From the NCBI GenBank assembly GCA_021157845.1, contig JAGGVU010000002.1, positions 31,376 to 95,375 on the forward strand: 64,000 nucleotides of DNA, in the 5' to 3' direction. The DNA is from Candidatus Aenigmatarchaeota archaeon (GTDB lineage Archaea > Aenigmatarchaeota > Aenigmatarchaeia > GW2011-AR5 > JAGGXF01). Below are positions 31,571 to 37,442 of this stretch, piece after piece (the stretch's first letter is position 1; every line of letters starts with the position of its first letter). The translations under genes were made by a program, and so were the position numbers. Under the pieces are notes generated by a model. The model did not search any database, was not told the DNA's origin, and worked only from the letters and a program-made list of their open reading frames with translations.

Positions 31571-31888
31571 ATGAATAAAGGTATATCACTTCCAGTAAAT
31601 ATGGTTATAATTCTTATAATAGCTGTCATTGTTTTAGGCGTTTCTTTGGCATTTCTTCTTAAGATTGGCTCGCGAGGGATGGACGAAGCAGCAAACAGGC
31701 AGCTGGCAAATAAATTATGCACTCAATATGTGGGAAAAGACCCTACCTGCTCAGATACAAGCAAAGCAGATAGCGAGCTTTTGGAAAAATTGGCATCAAC
31801 ATGTGCAAAACTTAATTATACCGAGTGTTTAGATATAGCAGATGTTTCTTGTGTTAAAAAATGCTGTTCATTATTCTGCTCGGAATAA
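31571..31888 (+). CDS. small Cys-rich pilin (candidate major pilin), paralog of 37107..37442
   Basis: MNKGISLPVNMVIILIIAVIVLGVSLAF, with a Cys-rich C-terminus. 105 aa. Has its own A/T-rich TATA-like upstream element. Confidence 0.6.
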   Translation: MNKGISLPVNMVIILIIAVIVLGVSLAFLLKIGSRGMDEAANRQLANKLCTQYVGKDPTCSDTSKADSELLEKLASTCAKLNYTECLDIADVSCVKKCCSLFCSE

Positions 31889-31962
31889 ATGTCACTACTC
31901 TGATGCTCGGCTTCACCTCACGCCCAAAGTTTTTCTAACGAAAAACCTTCGTAAAATGGCAT
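31889..31962. repeat. cassette-spacer repeat family, copy E0 (partial)
   Basis: Shares GCTCGGCTT, CACCCAAA, GCATATGTT and GGCCCGCA(A/G)A blocks with E1 to E4. Confidence 0.4.
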
Positions 31963-32046
31963 ATGTTATATTCAATTTGCGTTGGCCCGCAAAGCCTAAA
32001 TTTTAAAACCGAAAACTTTATATATAATCGTTACAAAAGTAACAAT

Positions 32047-32595
32047 ATGGTCAAAAAAGTTTCAATATGGTTAACTTTGGAACCATTGTTATATGCCGAG
32101 CCAAAACATCTTGCTGAGATATCAAAAAAGCTCAAAAGACCGCACACGACTATAAGAAAACAACTTGCAGTATTTGAAAACATTGGACTATTAGAGAAAG
32201 AAAAAAAAGGAAGGCAAACACTTTACCAACTGAAAAAAATCCCTTTGTTTGTGGATTACTTAACAATAATTGAGAAGGAAAAGCTAATTGAAAGATGTAA
32301 AGAGGAGTTAGTTTTAAAAGAAATAATAGAGCAGTTACATTCCTTTAATAATCCTATTATTATTTTTGGTTCGGCTGTAGATTCAGTAAAAAAAGCAGGA
32401 GATGTGGATATTCTTGTTGTTGGAAAATTTAACAGAGAAAAAATTAAACTTCTTGAGAAAAAACTTAATTTGAAATTTCATATTATAAATGTAAAATCAT
32501 TAAAAGAAATAAGTGAAACATTAAAAAAAGAAATCATAAAAAAGCATTTGATTATCCAAAAAAGCGAGGAATGGATAAAATGGTTAGTAAGTTGA
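32047..32595 (+). CDS. minimal nucleotidyltransferase (MNT) with N-terminal wHTH, antitoxin-like
   Basis: NTase motif GSAVDSVKKAGDVDILVV. Internal ATG at 32047 (MVKKVSIW); the ORF track starts at 31963. Confidence 0.55.
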   Translation: MVKKVSIWLTLEPLLYAEPKHLAEISKKLKRPHTTIRKQLAVFENIGLLEKEKKGRQTLYQLKKIPLFVDYLTIIEKEKLIERCKEELVLKEIIEQLHSFNNPIIIFGSAVDSVKKAGDVDILVVGKFNREKIKLLEKKLNLKFHIINVKSLKEISETLKKEIIKKHLIIQKSEEWIKWLVS

Positions 32596-33047
32596 AATGG
32601 TGTTTCAGGAAGAGAGAAGTTAAACTTATCGAGCCTAACGAAAATCTATCAAATGAATATTTGAAAAGTGCTGAAGAAACCTTGCTTGTTTTGAGAGACA
32701 TTAAAGGAAAATCAAATATGTGGTTAGCAACAACAAAATACTATTCTGAATATTTTGCACTTTATGCTTTGTTAATGCGTATAGGCATTAAATCGGAGAT
32801 CCATGATTGCACTATAGAGATTGTGAAGTTTCTTGAAGAACAAAATGTTATTGAAATGGGGATTGCAAAAATACTTGAGAATGATAAAAGTTTAAGAATC
32901 GATAACCAATACTATTTGAAAAATAAGAAGGTATTTGTAGATTACAATAACTTAAGGGATTTGATTTTTAAAATCAAAGAAATAATAAACACAATAACCA
33001 ACGAAAAAATTGAGGAAATAAGAAGAAAAATCAGAGAAATAGTTTAG
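32571..33047 (+). CDS. HEPN-domain protein, toxin-like partner of MNT
   Basis: HEPN helical pattern (YYSEYFALYALLMRIGIKSEIHD). Overlaps the MNT gene by 25 nt. Confidence 0.5.
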   Translation: MDKMVSKLKWCFRKREVKLIEPNENLSNEYLKSAEETLLVLRDIKGKSNMWLATTKYYSEYFALYALLMRIGIKSEIHDCTIEIVKFLEEQNVIEMGIAKILENDKSLRIDNQYYLKNKKVFVDYNNLRDLIFKIKEIINTITNEKIEEIRRKIREIV

Positions 33048-33276
33048 CTCTCCGATCTCGGCTTCTCTGGGCCGAAGGCTCAGGTCACTTGACAGTGATT
33101 TAACGGTTACGCTCAGTTGCACCTTGTTTCGCCCAAATTTGCTTTTAGTCAACTTCGCTTAATCGCATATGTTCAATCGAGAATAAGTCCTAAATAATTG
33201 AAAGGGCAATTTCTAAAAAGTGGGAGGGGCTCGCCTACCGATATATTTAAATAAAAGTGTTAGTTAAGTTATAAAT
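33048..33276. repeat. cassette-spacer repeat family, copy E1
   Basis: Carries CGATCTCGGCTTCT, a GC hairpin, GCTCAGGTCACTTGACAG (33078-33095), ATTTAACGGTT and ACTTCGCTTAATCGCATATGTT (33152-33173). GC-rich relative to flanking sequence. Confidence 0.55.
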
Positions 33277-35022
33277 ATGATTAAATTAAAAGAGGTTATA
33301 ATTCTATTTTCAGTATTTTTAACGATAATTCAATCTGTTTCTGCTATCTCAAATGTTCAACATTCTGTAGATGGAAATAAAGTTACCTTAACTTATCAAG
33401 GGATTCCTCCATTTTGGATAAATATAAGAGGAGATACAAACATCGGGCAAGCAGGAGGATATTTATGGGCAAAAACATACTCAAAATCATTTAGTTATGA
33501 TATGAGTTTTGCTATTAATCCTTCTAAGAAATTTTATTATGGCATTAAAGATACAAGTTGGAGTTCTCCAACTGTTTTTAATTTAGGTGAAGTTCAAAAA
33601 AATGGATTAATTATTATTAATAAAAATGCTGATGGTAAGAATTACGCTAAACAAATTGCTCAGAATAGGGGTTGGGGATTTATTGAGTTAGAATCTTCAG
33701 ATATTAACTATATTAAAAACACCGTAAAATCATTTTATAATGAAAATAACAACGAATTTCTATTAATAATTGGTGATTTTAATGAAATACCTCTTAAAGA
33801 CACTGGAACACAACAATTTGGTTCTCAAGTTTATATTACAGACCCTCAATTGTATGGGGACATAAATGGAGATGGTTATGTTGATTTAAGCATTGGTAGA
33901 ATTCCTTTCTCATCCAAAATTTTATTGGAAAAATATTTTGATAATCTCCAAATTTCAGGTGAGAATGTATATATTGAAAATTATCCTTTTGGTAGCAGCT
34001 ACGATAATCTCCCATACGATGGATCTACATCAGGAGAATACATTGCTTCATTTTGTTTAAAAAAAGAATTGCCTCAATTGCAACCATATCGATTTAGAAG
34101 CAAAAATCAATTGATTAATGATTATCGGAGTTCTTCAGTAGTGCTTTTGAATACTCATGGCTCTTGGAGTGGTTTTAGTGTTAAGACTGAAGAGGAATTT
34201 AGAAACAAACAAACGCATTCTTTGGGTATTAATGACTTATGTGGCACGCAACAAGAAGATTGTTTTACTAATAGACCCATTTTTCTGCATTTTTCCTGCT
34301 TGAATGCAAGAAAATTAGGTATTGATCTCATAAAAAGAGGAGCTTCTGCTTTCATTGGGAATTATAATACTGGAGGTTATACTCCTAAAGGATTTTTATC
34401 TGAACTAGCTACAGGAAAACCTGTTGGTACTGTTATGAAAAATCAAATAAATAGAAAATTAAGCCATAATTTAGCTCTTAAAATGATTGTTGAAAATAGA
34501 GGAGAAAGAGAGAATGTTAATATAATTAATGAAAATATTGAAATATTTGATGATTATGGCGCTATCATGTATGGAGACCCAACACTTACTGTTAATATTC
34601 AAAAAGGTTCGGAAAATGTTAATATCCTTGAAGATCATAACAACAAAGTTGTAACAATCAAGATTAATAAAAACCCGGAGTTCATTCTTGATCCAGAACA
34701 TGGTGAAGACTATTATGGGATTCTTTGTTATAATAGCGTAAATTTAGATTCTTTGAAACACATAGATAAATCTTCATGGGAACAAACGTTTAATTCTTCA
34801 CACATGGCTACATTTCTTATACCAATAAATGATAATTCAATACAAGAGATTACTTCAGTTAAGATTAAATTAGAAGATCAATATGAGACTATATATGATA
34901 ACTCTATAAACTATTATTTATTCAAAGGAATAGACAAACAATTTTTATATTTAGATCTAGGTTATGATTCTCCTTTTATACCTTCAAATAAAGATTTAGA
35001 AATTCAAATTTACTATAATTAA
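33277..35022 (+). CDS. secreted protein with Sec signal peptide; possible C25/caspase-fold cysteine peptidase
   Basis: Signal peptide MIKLKEVIILFSVFLTIIQSVSA. His-Gly (LLNTHGS) and a downstream Cys (HFSCLN) spaced like the gingipain catalytic dyad. 581 aa. Confidence 0.4.
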   Translation: MIKLKEVIILFSVFLTIIQSVSAISNVQHSVDGNKVTLTYQGIPPFWINIRGDTNIGQAGGYLWAKTYSKSFSYDMSFAINPSKKFYYGIKDTSWSSPTVFNLGEVQKNGLIIINKNADGKNYAKQIAQNRGWGFIELESSDINYIKNTVKSFYNENNNEFLLIIGDFNEIPLKDTGTQQFGSQVYITDPQLYGDINGDGYVDLSIGRIPFSSKILLEKYFDNLQISGENVYIENYPFGSSYDNLPYDGSTSGEYIASFCLKKELPQLQPYRFRSKNQLINDYRSSSVVLLNTHGSWSGFSVKTEEEFRNKQTHSLGINDLCGTQQEDCFTNRPIFLHFSCLNARKLGIDLIKRGASAFIGNYNTGGYTPKGFLSELATGKPVGTVMKNQINRKLSHNLALKMIVENRGERENVNIINENIEIFDDYGAIMYGDPTLTVNIQKGSENVNILEDHNNKVVTIKINKNPEFILDPEHGEDYYGILCYNSVNLDSLKHIDKSSWEQTFNSSHMATFLIPINDNSIQEITSVKIKLEDQYETIYDNSINYYLFKGIDKQFLYLDLGYDSPFIPSNKDLEIQIYYN

Positions 35023-35223
35023 AACGGCGATCTCCGACTTCTTCGCAACATTCGGTTGCTCGACCGCTCCAAGTATTCGCGGGGACTTAACAGGCATTAA
35101 ACGGCTCGGCTTTTGCAGAGCCTCCACCCAAACTTTGCCTAATGGCAAAACTTCGCTTAATCGCATGTGTTAGGCGTAATTGCTCGACCGCACAATAAAT
35201 TTTTATAGAAACAAGTTTAGTTA
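35023..35223. repeat. cassette-spacer repeat family, copy E2
   Basis: Carries CGATCTCCGACTTCT, the hairpin GCAACATTCGGTTGC (35045-35059), ACTTAACAGG, ATTAAACGGCT, CACCCAAACTTTGCC and ACTTCGCTTAATCGCATGTGTT (35150-35171). Also the imperfect inverted pair GCCTAAT...GTTAGGC (35137-35175). Confidence 0.55.
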
Positions 35224-35787
35224 ATGATTATGAAACAATTAACTGAAATTGGAAAATTCTTGAAGGAAAAATCAAATGATAAAGCAAAAGAAAGTTGGAG
35301 AAAATTTGTTCCAACTTCAGAAAAAGTTTATGGAGTATATCTTGCTGAAATAAATAAAATTATTTCAAAATATATCTCTGGCGGTTTTAAACTTGTTGAA
35401 GAATTATGGAAAAGCGGTTATTTAGAAGAAAGAATTCTGGCTGCAAAAATCTTAGGAAAGATTTGTAAAAAAGACCCAGAAAAAACTTTAGGCTTAATTA
35501 AAAATTTTGTTGATGACATTACAGACTGGGCTGTATGCGATACCTTAGCAATCCAAGGAATCAGACCAATAGCAAAAATAAAACAAAAAGAAATTTTTGA
35601 ATTCTCAAGAAAATTGGTGAAATCTAAAAACCCTTGGAAAAGGAGGTTTGGAATTGTTTTGTTGATTAATTTCAAAAAAGATAAAACTTTGAAAAAAGAA
35701 ATTGAGAAAATCATAAAAAATGTTGAAGACGACAAAGAACATTATGTTAAAAAAGCTATAGACTGGGTTAAAAGAGAACTAAAATAG
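35224..35787 (+). CDS. HEAT-like repeat protein, DNA alkylation repair (AlkD/AlkC-like)
   Basis: All-helical 187 aa with the spacing of the DNA_alkylation family. Confidence 0.35.
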   Translation: MIMKQLTEIGKFLKEKSNDKAKESWRKFVPTSEKVYGVYLAEINKIISKYISGGFKLVEELWKSGYLEERILAAKILGKICKKDPEKTLGLIKNFVDDITDWAVCDTLAIQGIRPIAKIKQKEIFEFSRKLVKSKNPWKRRFGIVLLINFKKDKTLKKEIEKIIKNVEDDKEHYVKKAIDWVKRELK

Positions 35788-35887
35788 TGCCGCCCCGCAA
35801 CCCAAAATCCTTGAATTTTGCCCTACAGAAGGCATACATCTTTTATATTTCAATCCACTTTTCTCTTTAATAAATTTATAAATTGTT
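35788..35887. repeat. cassette-spacer repeat family, copy E4 (3' half only)
   Basis: CAACCCAAAATCC...TTTTGCCC matches the CACCCAAACTTTGCC block of E2. Confidence 0.35.
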
Positions 35888-35905
35888 TTGAATTTACTTA
35901 TTATT

Positions 35906-36337
35906 ATGAAGATTGTAATTTGTGCCGGTTTAGAATTTACATATCAAATAAAAGAAGTTGCCGAACAATTAATTAAACTAGGGCATGAAGTTGTGATACC
36001 TAAAACCGCTGAAATGATTCTGAACGGAGAGGTAACATTAAAACAAATTAAACAAGAAAAAGAAAATGGTGAAATTTCAAATAGAGCAAAGAAATATGAT
36101 GTTATAAGATACTATTTTGAAAAAATTAAAAATGCTGATGCAATTCTTGTTTTGAACTATGAAAAAAGAGGAATTAAAAATTACATTGGAGGAAACGTTT
36201 TTCTTGAAATAGGATTTGCACATGTATTGGGTAAAAAAATATTCTTACTAAACGAAATCCCTGATATGTTCTATAAAGACGAAATTGAATCTATGGACCC
36301 AATAGTATTAAAAGGAAACTTAAATAAAATCAAATAG
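35906..36337 (+). CDS. nucleoside 2-deoxyribosyltransferase-like protein
   Basis: Rossmann-like N-terminus KIVICAG and a GNVFLEIGFAHVLGKKIF motif matching the NDT/DUF4406 consensus. The ORF track starts at 35888. Confidence 0.45.
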   Translation: MKIVICAGLEFTYQIKEVAEQLIKLGHEVVIPKTAEMILNGEVTLKQIKQEKENGEISNRAKKYDVIRYYFEKIKNADAILVLNYEKRGIKNYIGGNVFLEIGFAHVLGKKIFLLNEIPDMFYKDEIESMDPIVLKGNLNKIK

Positions 36338-36605
36338 ACGGACTTCTGCGGTTGCCTTCGGCAATCCTTGCCATCGGTATCGCTCAGGTCACTTAACAGC
36401 CGTTATTATTCAATCGGCGTCGGCCCGCAGAAATTTATAAACTAGCCAAAAATAGGTTAATCATCCGAAATATTAGGTCGCTTACGATTGTCGGGTTTAT
36501 TTTTGTTTAGTTGCATTTTAATCGTTTAAAAAGGTTTAAAAACATTTCTTTCATACACTATATGAGTTTATTCATAGATAATGCAATGTAAAGGAGGTTT
36601 TTAAG
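36338..36605. repeat. cassette-spacer repeat family, copy E3
   Basis: Carries GACTTCTGCGG, the hairpin GTTGCCTTCGGCAA (36351-36364), GCTCAGGTCACTTAACAG (36382-36399), TTCAATCGGCG and GGCCCGCAGA. Confidence 0.55.
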
Positions 36606-36908
36606 ATGGCAGAGGAACAAGGAATTGAAAAAAAAGAAAAGCAAGACAATGTGATTTTTGTTGGGAAAAAGCCCAATATGTCCTATGTGCTTGCAGCAGT
36701 TACACAATTCGGTGATGGGCAGAATGAAATATATATAAAAGCAAGAGGAAGGTCTATCAGCAAAGCTGTTGATGTCGCAGAAATTGTTAAAAACAAGTTT
36801 GTTCAGGATGCAAAGGTAAAAGACGTAACAATCGGAACAGACGCAGTAGAGAATGAAAACAAAGAAAAAATCAATGTTTCAACAATTAGCATAACTCTTG
36901 GAAAGTAA
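36606..36908 (+). CDS. albA: chromatin protein Alba
   Basis: NVIFVGKKPNMSYVLAAVTQF...IYIKARGRSISKAVDVAEIVKNKF. AAGGAGG Shine-Dalgarno upstream. Confidence 0.85.
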   Translation: MAEEQGIEKKEKQDNVIFVGKKPNMSYVLAAVTQFGDGQNEIYIKARGRSISKAVDVAEIVKNKFVQDAKVKDVTIGTDAVENENKEKINVSTISITLGK

Positions 36909-37048
36909 CTTTTTTCTTTTTTTTCTTTTATTAAGTTTTTACTAATTTTAGGTTAGTTAGAAGATCTTTATACTCAGTGCCAAAAGCCGCGCGTGGAAAC
37001 TACTTTGGTCAAAATAGAGTAACTTCTCGTTATGTATCGACAATCATC

Positions 37049-37066
37049 ACAAACTTTATATACAAC
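37049..37066 (+). promoter_or_regulatory. TATA-like element (CTTTATATAC) upstream of pilin paralog, followed by AGGAGG Shine-Dalgarno
   Basis: A/T-rich TATA-like box about 45 nt upstream of the ATG at 37107. Shine-Dalgarno GCAGGAGG lies 7 nt before the ATG. Confidence 0.3.
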
Positions 37067-37106
37067 GAAATATAATTTATTCTTACGAACTGCAGGAGGT
37101 TGTTTT

Positions 37107-37442
37107 ATGTCTAAGAAAGGAATAAGTCTGCCCATTAACATGCTTGTAATTTTAGCAGTAGCTGTTATTGTTCTACTGGCTGTAGTTGCATTCTTTTTTT
37201 CTAATGTAGTTAAGGGTGGTGAAAGTGTAAGTCTCTCAGACGCGTGGGGCGACGCATGTATACGTGTGACAACTACATATGGATGTTCAGTAGATAGTGT
37301 AAACTCGGCTTTAGATGCTGGAACGTTTCTTGTTCGATATGGAAATGGAACCAGACCGTTTGATGAGATATGTCAAATAAAACTTGGAACAACTGATATA
37401 GCAACATGTATTTCCGATTGCGGATGCAAAGTCACTGAATAA
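37107..37442 (+). CDS. small Cys-rich pilin (candidate major pilin), paralog of 31571..31888
   Basis: MSKKGISLPINMLVILAVAVIVLLAVVAF, nearly identical in its signal region to the 31571 product. Internal Met of ORF 37032. Confidence 0.6.
   Translation: MSKKGISLPINMLVILAVAVIVLLAVVAFFFSNVVKGGESVSLSDAWGDACIRVTTTYGCSVDSVNSALDAGTFLVRYGNGTRPFDEICQIKLGTTDIATCISDCGCKVTE

Follow-up and report, generated by a model that had tools for sequence, protein, structure and literature searches.

Locally GC-rich repeats follow the gene units of an archaeal accessory island

We analyzed a 64-kb stretch of DNA (hereafter the window) from a Candidatus Aenigmatarchaeota archaeon (contig JAGGVU010000002.1, assembly GCA_021157845.1), in which an island at 31889-36431 comprises four plus-strand gene units, after each of which comes a spacer that is locally GC-rich and homologous to the others. 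The surrounding chromosome is archaeal, with ~30% GC, and the window encodes MCM, TBP, FtsZ, aTrm56, a CCA-adding enzyme and proteasome subunits; no tRNAs were found in it. An earlier note, made from the sequence alone, had read the gene units as cassettes separated by five homologous spacers (E0-E4) and likened them to a cluster of attC sites lacking integron integrases (CALIN). Part of this reading stands, namely a co-oriented array with structured, recombination-site-like elements and no integrase in view, whereas membership of the canonical integrons does not, as the elements belong to a different family. Our analysis indicates that the region is probably an orphan cassette array in partial decay, belonging to a non-canonical, integron-like system of site-specific recombination in archaea.

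The co-directional layout was borne out by open reading frame (ORF) calls and Pfam matches, and GC content reaches 42-52% in the spacers, compared with ~20-35% in the genes next to them, with some coding stretches elsewhere being equally GC-rich. The blocks said to be shared between spacers are real: ACTTCGCTTAATCGCATRTGTT, GCTCAGGTCACTTRACAG and GCGTYGGCCCGCARA each occur twice in the window, far above shuffled expectations of 0.00, 0.05 and 0.11, respectively, and no shared block was found outside the island within the window. One further proposed block, CGATCTCSGRCTTCT, holds for E2 and not for E1, where an indel interrupts it.

To score the window copies, we used R1, a covariance model of the 3′ domain of the element that the spacers represent. 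R1 matched E1 (33081-33185; 67.8 bits, E 9e-12), E2 (35079-35183; 55.3 bits, E 5e-9) and E0 (31881-31979; 29.6 bits, E 0.0025), in which 25, 23 and 20 of the 32 model pairs are intact, respectively, versus a family median of 27; the long helix of E2 is partly mismatched, and E2 shares 97% identity with the copy at L001 (L-numbers label the loci compared). R1 recognizes E0, E1 and E2, whereas E3 and E4 are deletion remnants recognizable only by eye: homologs of E3 score ~20 bits, and E4 gives no significant match to R1, yet is 95-100% conserved in sister strains. With R1 matches at 31881, 33081 and 35079 plus the two remnants, the island holds at least two sites within 4 kb and no integrase nearby, as a CALIN-type array does.

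The spacers belong to a structured element family found across archaea

We took a degenerate 21-mer from the block common to E0, E1 and E2 and searched for it in a set containing a single genome for each prokaryotic species, where it matched 46 genome loci with conserved flanks, ~40 of them in MAGs (metagenome-assembled genomes) of archaea belonging to several phyla, mostly DPANN. Archaeal hosts include Aenigmatarchaeota, Woese- and Pacearchaeota, Micrarchaeota, Altiarchaeota, Methanosarcinales, UBA148, Methanophagales and one Asgard genome. The element-bearing MAGs at L016, L042, L021, L036 and L047 are labelled Saccharibacteria, Falkowbacteria or simply 'bacterium', reflecting either an occurrence in the candidate phyla radiation (CPR) or mis-binned DPANN DNA.

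The full element spans ~200 nt and consists of a variable 5′ domain and a conserved ~100-nt 3′ domain. Directly after the preceding stop codon, the 5′ domain carries a GACTTCT-like sequence and a hairpin whose stem changes between copies yet stays paired (GGGCT/AGCCC, GGCTCC/GGAGCC, GCAAC/GTTGC, TTGCC/GGCAA), so that the hairpin with differing stems first noticed in the window recurs across family members. In E1 the corresponding hairpin (33056-33076) reads GCC-GAA-GGC on the top strand, where most family members and E3 have a TTC loop, so that E1 has its loop in the opposite orientation. The 3′ domain opens with an outer helix, xTAACA/TGTTAx, which in E2 pairs ACTTAACA (35087-35094) with TGTTA (35168-35172). 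A 3-nt bulge (ATA) follows, then an 11-bp helix that exists in variants such as GCGATTTAACG/CGTTAAATCGC, GCCGTTTTACG/CGTAAAACGGC and CGATTAAGAG/CTCTTAATCG, and finally a three-way junction made up of hairpin P_a, a single-stranded CCCAAAT, hairpin P_b and an invariant ACTTC. A further helix closing the element's two ends was considered and rejected (mean z −0.07), and neither terminal pairing nor a terminal inverted repeat (TIR) was seen.

Substitutions across the family follow this structure closely. In an alignment of 31 sequences, 85.9% of cells are paired versus ~40% in slid controls, and double-change cells number 178 versus 61 in shuffles; in an alignment of 92 sequences the corresponding values are 86.2% versus 33-44%, and 675 versus 214. 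In both alignments, 0 of 500 shuffles attained the observed double-change count. This strong covariation upholds the earlier view of the spacers as a functional folded nucleic acid rather than decayed sequence where the family is concerned; the copies in the window have themselves undergone partial decay. A search of Rfam with the window, the island and 18 related loci returned no family at gathering score, with E-values at chance level only.

Two minus-strand ORFs, 32952-33152 (66 aa) and 34996-35166 (56 aa), cross E1 and E2. We dropped the idea that they represent decayed coding sequence because substitutions in the family follow helix covariation; they are probably by-products of the GC-rich repeat and not genes. 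In several unrelated genomes the element is preceded by a conserved stretch reading AAGAAAAAACTACGGCAACAAAA(A)TTTTCGGCGCC (L024:3640-3680, L027:1373-1410, L059:4482-4520, and ~830 on the minus strand of L026). At L024 and L027 this stretch comes directly after a hairpin and a TATA-like box; it is possibly a promoter, the end of a small ORF or an extension of the element.

Element arrays lie on one side of a divergent recombinase gene

Co-oriented arrays of the element occur at other loci with a spacing of 0.4-2 kb and an orientation that is uniform within each locus, including six copies in 6.7 kb at L033, five at L044, four at L047 and three within 1.5 kb at L036. Pfam annotation of 98 neighboring ORFs revealed no enrichment of recombinases, TnpB or reverse transcriptases. 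At L026, one ORF encodes a 261-aa tyrosine recombinase, and this gene or its remnants lie beside arrays in six genome loci (L026 and five more found by tblastn), always divergent from the array; four of the six copies are frameshifted or fragmentary. The search for a tyrosine recombinase that the earlier note had proposed was thus empty for the window itself (tblastn) and successful in its relatives.

We then searched 80 metagenome loci encoding relatives of this recombinase with R1. The 63 loci with close relatives contained all 52 element copies, each located upstream of the recombinase start and on the opposite strand, corresponding to 52 copies in 150 kb of upstream sequence versus 0 in 188 kb downstream. 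At least one copy was present in 19 of the 21 loci having more than 2.5 kb of upstream sequence, and no elements were found by R1 in the 17 loci with distant recombinases (<48% identity, 92 kb).

These positions bear on whether the spacers might instead be dispersed repeats, such as miniature inverted-repeat transposable elements (MITEs) or repetitive extragenic palindromic (REP) sequences, or generic terminators that happen to be dense in the island, as the earlier note had allowed. Although they are short, GC-rich, intergenic and repeated, and some carry hairpins, their copies are co-oriented, sit on one side of a specific recombinase gene, are confined to the island and to one strand in the 64-kb window, and have no terminal 5′/3′ pairing; a scan of 2.9 million viral contigs with the element pattern gave 0 matches. 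We consider this explanation highly improbable.

The best family match of the recombinase is archaeal XerA (NF040815; 206.7 bits, cut-off 220), and its closest solved structures are XerA 4A8E and 5HXY, each matched in one stretch. By comparison, the TIGR02249 profile matched at 179.8 bits (cut-off 265) in two stretches with ~30 profile positions skipped, and IntI4 (2A3V) likewise matched in two stretches that skip the IntI-specific insertion. Judged by these profile and structure matches, the array-linked recombinase is XerA-like and without the IntI-specific insertion.

A shared GTT core as the proposed cassette boundary

Between the recombinase gene and the array, 100-135 nt upstream of the recombinase start, lies a distinct attI-like site, consisting of a hairpin, ..AATAG or ..ATTG, TGTT and AnnnnCAAT in that order. 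Its hairpin stems differ by lineage (AAACGCA/TGCGTTT, TTAAGCGA/TCGCTTAA and TTTCCCGAAA/TTTCGGGAAA), and it has only the element's 3′ end in common with the cassette element. The co-oriented array, the divergent recombinase gene and the separate site between them form an integron-like architecture in these relatives, not in the window, where no attI-like site was found.

One cassette family allowed the boundary to be placed. Its start, CAACGAAATTTTTTCTTCGGCTAAAATTTAAATC, follows TGTT in three contexts, namely the attI-like site of L063, the other type of attI-like site at L069 and a full element at L033, while the cassette middle differs between loci. Because homology among these loci begins at GTT, the exchange point would lie at or just after GTT, as in integrons, and in this cassette family the same cassette start is found at the core after different sites. 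A 77%-identical cargo gene common to L036 and L056 was also examined for cassette boundaries; homology there is limited to the ORF and is uninformative. The sequence after GTT generally reads AnnTnCAAT plus a GC-rich stretch, exemplified in the window by ATATTCAATTTGCGTTGGCCCGCA and ATTATTCAATCGGCGTCGGCCCGCA, and since this tail lies beyond GTT it would belong to the next cassette. Across the family, TATA-like boxes are most frequent 20-40 nt past GTT, which suggests that cassettes carry promoters of their own.

The attI-like site also helps to weigh an explanation based on exploitation of Xer/dif, as in integrative mobile elements exploiting Xer (IMEX), whereby the recombinase would be the housekeeping XerA, the neighboring site the chromosomal dif, and the cassettes would integrate serially via folded single-stranded dif mimics, as CTX phage does in Vibrio. 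XerA is indeed the best family and supplies the closest structures, and recombination sites directly beside the recombinase gene are known for XerS/difSL and XerH/difH. However, the XerA score falls under the curated cut-off, the frameshifted or fragmentary state of four of the six genome copies is unexpected for an essential gene, and the site consists of a hairpin and TGTT where dif would have two inverted 11-bp arms, no dif-like 11-6-11 site having been recognized. The 17 more distant Xer-like loci are moreover free of elements. We regard accumulation through Xer/dif as unlikely.

Loop motifs and mismatches favor folded single-stranded DNA

Covariation by itself fits RNA and single-stranded DNA equally well, and the two can be told apart only by other features of the helices and loops. 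Well-supported helices contain 69 A.C mismatches versus 37 G.T (p 0.002), which argues against a sense-strand RNA, for which the opposite bias should be seen. The loops of P_b and P_a, read on the top strand, are TNC in 31 of 37 triloops and TNNC in 11 of 13 tetraloops; on the bottom strand, GNA or GNNA loops appear in 42 cases, versus 0 on the top strand. The closing pair is C:G in 28 of 30 P_b loops versus 3 of 12 P_a loops, the other P_a loops being closed by T:A. Unusual stability as DNA hairpin loops is a known property of C-GNA-G triloops, for example in d(GCGAAGC), and of GTTA-type loops; TNC and TNNC are not known as stable RNA loops. Loop motifs and mismatch bias together suggest that the folded species is single-stranded DNA, and specifically the bottom strand.

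The same observations address the possibility that the element is a structured RNA, either a processing element of the 3′ untranslated region or an independent small RNA, that travels with accessory genes and lies near the recombinase only secondarily. Many copies begin directly after a stop codon, and a TATA-like box lies upstream of the element in a few single-copy loci, as would suit an RNA. Against it, no Rfam family was reached at either gathering or E-value thresholds, the sense strand has no G.U excess, the DNA-type loops arise on the antisense strand, and 17 of 48 elements follow a gene in the opposite orientation. An RNA would also leave unexplained why the elements keep so strictly to one position and orientation with respect to the recombinase, and why a half-site lies at the recombinase promoter. 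We therefore find an RNA function decidedly unlikely, and folded single-stranded DNA remains our preferred account of the covariation.

Island layout, cargo and strain variation

The positions of the genes, element copies and cassettes are collected in Table 1. The left-flank pilin-like protein is identical on nine contigs, and E0 comes next in all nine. Tail ATATTCAATTTGCGTTGGCCCGCA of the first cassette leader is found again in E3, L036, L028 and L070. We place the start of the winged helix-turn-helix (wHTH)-nucleotidyltransferase at ~32047 and not at 31963 because the ATG at 31963 falls within the repeat. Its partner ORF has no Pfam match, its HEPN assignment resting on position, and exact-sequence look-ups of this ORF and of the C25 peptidase returned zero records. 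The E1 GTT core occupies 33171-33173, and cassette 2 therefore starts at 33174. The last cargo gene is likewise called at 143 aa on L001, L002 and L010.

Table 1. Genes, element copies and cassettes of the island and its flanks, in window coordinates.
Feature	Position	Strand	Basis
Left flank: archaeal pilin-like gene, core, last of T2SSE/T2SSF pilus-type operon	31571..31888	+	ORF and upstream Pfam context
E0: 5′-truncated element; retains junction CCCAAAG, P_b hairpin and CCTTCGTAAAATGGCATATGTT; ends at GTT core 31965-31967	31881..31967	+	R1
Cassette-1 leader: tail ATATTCAATTTGCGTTGGCCCGCA, then A/T-rich TATA-like box	31968..32046	+	
Cassette-1 gene a: wHTH and nucleotidyltransferase, MNT-type antitoxin-like	32047..32595	+	Pfam NTP_transf_2 22.7 bits (cut-off 21), TrmB/HTH
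Cassette-1 gene b: HEPN-like partner ORF, overlaps gene a	32571..33047	+	ORF call
E1: near full-length; 5′ domain 33048-33080, 3′ domain 33081-33185	33048..33185	+	R1
Cassette-2 gene: secreted C25-type peptidase-like protein, 581 aa	33277..35022	+	Pfam Peptidase_C25 E 3e-8
E2: full-length; 5′ domain with hairpin GCAAC/GTTGC, 3′ domain 35079-35183, GTT core 35169-35171	35023..35183	+	R1
Cassette-3 gene: DNA_alkylation (AlkD-like) protein	35224..35787	+	Pfam E 1.8e-32
E4: strongly decayed 3′-half remnant, CCCAAAAT ... GGCATACATCTTTTATATTTCAAT	35788..35850	+	Direct reading
Cassette-4 gene: nucleoside 2-deoxyribosyltransferase (NDT)-like, 143 aa	35906..36337	+	Pfam Nuc_deoxyrib_tr E 1.8e-4, under cut-off (weak)
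E3: internal deletion; 5′ domain with hairpin TTGCC/GGCAA and ..TCACTTAACAGCCGTT joined directly to tail ATTATTCAATCGGCGTCGGCCCGCA	36338..36431	+	Blocks common to E1 and E0
Right flank: Alba chromatin protein, core gene	36606..36908	+	Pfam Alba E 7e-21
Cassette 1, MNT/HEPN cargo	31968-33173		GTT-core reading
Cassette 2, peptidase cargo	33174-35171		GTT-core reading
Cassette 3, AlkD-like cargo	35172-~35843		GTT-core reading
Cassette 4, NDT-like cargo	~35844-~36404		GTT-core reading

Comparison of related strains, a check the earlier note had suggested, revealed variable cassette content. The Alba protein is identical on 17 contigs, and strains sharing it differ in what lies upstream. At L001 and L002, E3 is directly followed by an additional 136-aa gene, accompanied by a collapsed element of its own, and by a reverse-oriented uracil-DNA glycosylase (UDG) family gene; at L001 this extra segment spans 1904-2978, and the collapsed element reads ..GACTTCCTC..TTGTTCAATGGAATTGAACAGCGATTATGTGCAC. 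Strains of the L012 type carry a different sequence 3′ of the MNT gene, and contig breaks fall inside the island. E3 itself exists in two versions, which have lost different internal parts of the same ancestral full-length element: ..TAACAGCCGTT is joined to the tail in the window, and ..GCTTCGTAAAACGGCATATGTT is retained at L009, L002 and L010.

Further variation surrounds the island. Among strains with identical Alba, the pilin-like gene just downstream of Alba (37032-37442 in the window) forms a second strain-variable spot beside the island: its product has 136 aa in the window and at L001 and L009, whereas L002 and L004-L008 encode 111 aa and L003 encodes 106 aa. GC-rich, phage-like coding sequence abuts the Alba ribosome-binding site at L007:1-1376 and looks like an assembly chimera, not an island variant. 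At L003:1377-2491, the Tyr/Trp-tRNA synthetase gene located downstream of the island is called in two pieces (225 and 114 aa), which suggests a frameshift or an assembly error.

A model for cassette exchange and its weak points

We propose that each cassette begins just after the conserved GTT core and would consist of a short tail (AnnTnCAAT plus the GC-rich stretch), a TATA-like box of its own, one or two genes, and the ~200-nt element, whose variable 5′ domain leads into a conserved 3′ domain ending ...ATATGTT. In intact systems, a dedicated XerA-like tyrosine recombinase, encoded divergently at the array head, would exchange strands at the GTT core between the hairpin-plus-TGTT site (the attI analogue) and the folded cassette element (the attC analogue), the folded partner probably being the bottom DNA strand. 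Such exchange would insert, excise and reorder cassettes. In the window, E1 and E2 are mismatched and E0, E3 and E4 truncated, and the array forms a strain-variable accessory island between the pilus operon and the Alba gene. The absence of a recombinase from the window, the mismatched and truncated copies and the strain-variable content together lead us to call the array orphan, or CALIN-like, and its copies are presumably no longer active.

Several observations weigh against this model. E1 and E2 folded singly, on either strand, score no better than shuffles (z −1.07 to +0.67), so the structure is visible through family covariation alone, and pairs are broken in E0, E1 and E2. The choice of strand draws on loop motifs and on a modest mismatch bias, with 14 of the 69 A.C mismatches coming from a single column. 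The left break of the L001/L002 polymorphism falls after GCAGAAA, ~27 nt past the GTT core and behind the tail, not at the core, and the gene immediately 5′ of the element shares its orientation in 31 of 48 cases, below what is seen in classical integrons. The XerA-like character of the recombinase makes a housekeeping Xer/dif role possible. Finally, with neither a recombinase nor an attI-like site in the window, activity here cannot be claimed.

Taken more broadly, the element system is apparently an undescribed relative of bacterial integrons; a full-text literature search, incomplete in its coverage, found no description of it. Whether it constitutes a second lineage among integron-type platforms for gene capture, at home in DPANN and other archaea, with an XerA-like recombinase free of the IntI insertion, three-way-junction single-stranded DNA sites, a hairpin attI and cassette-borne promoters, which IntegronFinder would miss and which could be sister or precursor to bacterial integrons, is in our judgment evenly balanced. 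If so, gene-cassette platforms would be much commoner in archaea than present detection tools indicate, above all in the DPANN lineages, whose genomes are small and which rely on gene exchange. Integron-style recombination would also be possible without the IntI-specific domain, a point relevant to the evolution of integrons from Xer recombinases, and the defined, testable DNA sites and small recombinase could become genetic tools for archaea. For annotation, such arrays account for the GC-rich "spacers" and the assembly breaks in accessory islands of these genomes.

Comparison with known recombination systems

In bacteria, the capture and shuffling of genes is the textbook role of integrons; in Archaea few canonical integrons are known, and integrases have been found in very few genomes. 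A canonical CALIN with IntI-type attC sites would be the simplest form of the proposal in the earlier note, and the TAAC...GTTA core of the present element does resemble R′′/R′ (RYYYAAC/GTTRRRY). The specific pair proposed as such core sites in E2, GCCTAAT...GTTAGGC (35137-35175), did not survive: it is not the pairing conserved in the family, and an attC model scored it at 5.9 bits (E 8). As a proxy for the attC covariance search that had been suggested, we trained a model (R2) on attCaadA7 together with seven attCs from archaea that had been validated by recombination assay (PMC9668308, Data S9/S10). R2 matched no element when run with default filters on 371 kb, with filtering disabled on the island and a further 57 kb (best island score 9.8 bits, E 0.6), or on 257 kb of recombinase-linked arrays. 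Together with a linked recombinase that appears to be without the IntI insertion, these comparisons do not support membership of the canonical IntI-attC systems.

Canonical integrons do exist in Archaea: those of Ghaly et al. 2022, found by IntegronFinder, have attCs of 57-100 nt (nnCTAACAAnTC...GTTAGGC) and IntIs with the extra domain (PMC9668308). They resemble the present arrays in their overlapping hosts (Nanoarchaeota, Aenigmatarchaeota, Halobacteriota, Asgard) and in being mostly CALIN-type arrays on MAG contigs; they differ in that the elements described here form another sequence and structure family. In the genome UBA148, where integrons were called on contigs 23 and 63 (PMC9668308), the copy of the present element lies on contig 33. 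A canonical CALIN is therefore, in our view, very unlikely, and the non-canonical array remains the favored reading.

Systems built on XerA/dif and IMEX, including CTX phage with its folded single-stranded attP, share with the present arrays an XerA-closest recombinase and a chromosomal site that would pair with a folded single-stranded partner. They differ from the many-cassette arrays with their own structured sites seen here, from recombinase copies that are often pseudogenized, and from a recombinase scoring under the XerA cut-off.

The differences from integrons, including CALINs and sedentary chromosomal integrons, of which the Vibrio superintegron with its homologous Vibrio cholerae repeat (VCR) sites is an example, lie in the components. 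The recombinase here is predicted to be XerA-like, 261 aa long and without the IntI-specific insertion. The site adds a ~100-nt 5′ domain to ~100 nt in which an 11-bp helix, a 3-nt bulge and a three-way junction are combined with the invariant single-stranded motifs CCCAAAT and ACTTC, in place of the R/L boxes and variable tip of canonical attCs, and is not detected by the canonical attC model; the attI analogue is itself a hairpin, and cassettes appear to carry their own TATA-like boxes. The likenesses lie in the architecture: the recombinase is divergent at the head of a co-oriented array, and a distinct site on the recombinase side has nothing but the crossover end in common with the cassette sites. 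The cassettes are short (~0.4-2 kb), mostly single-gene, and include toxin-antitoxin-like pairs. Site structure is kept via compensatory changes, sites are similar within a lineage, the core is GTT/TAAC, the bottom strand probably folds, and, as with the array in the window, orphan arrays exist that have no integrase.

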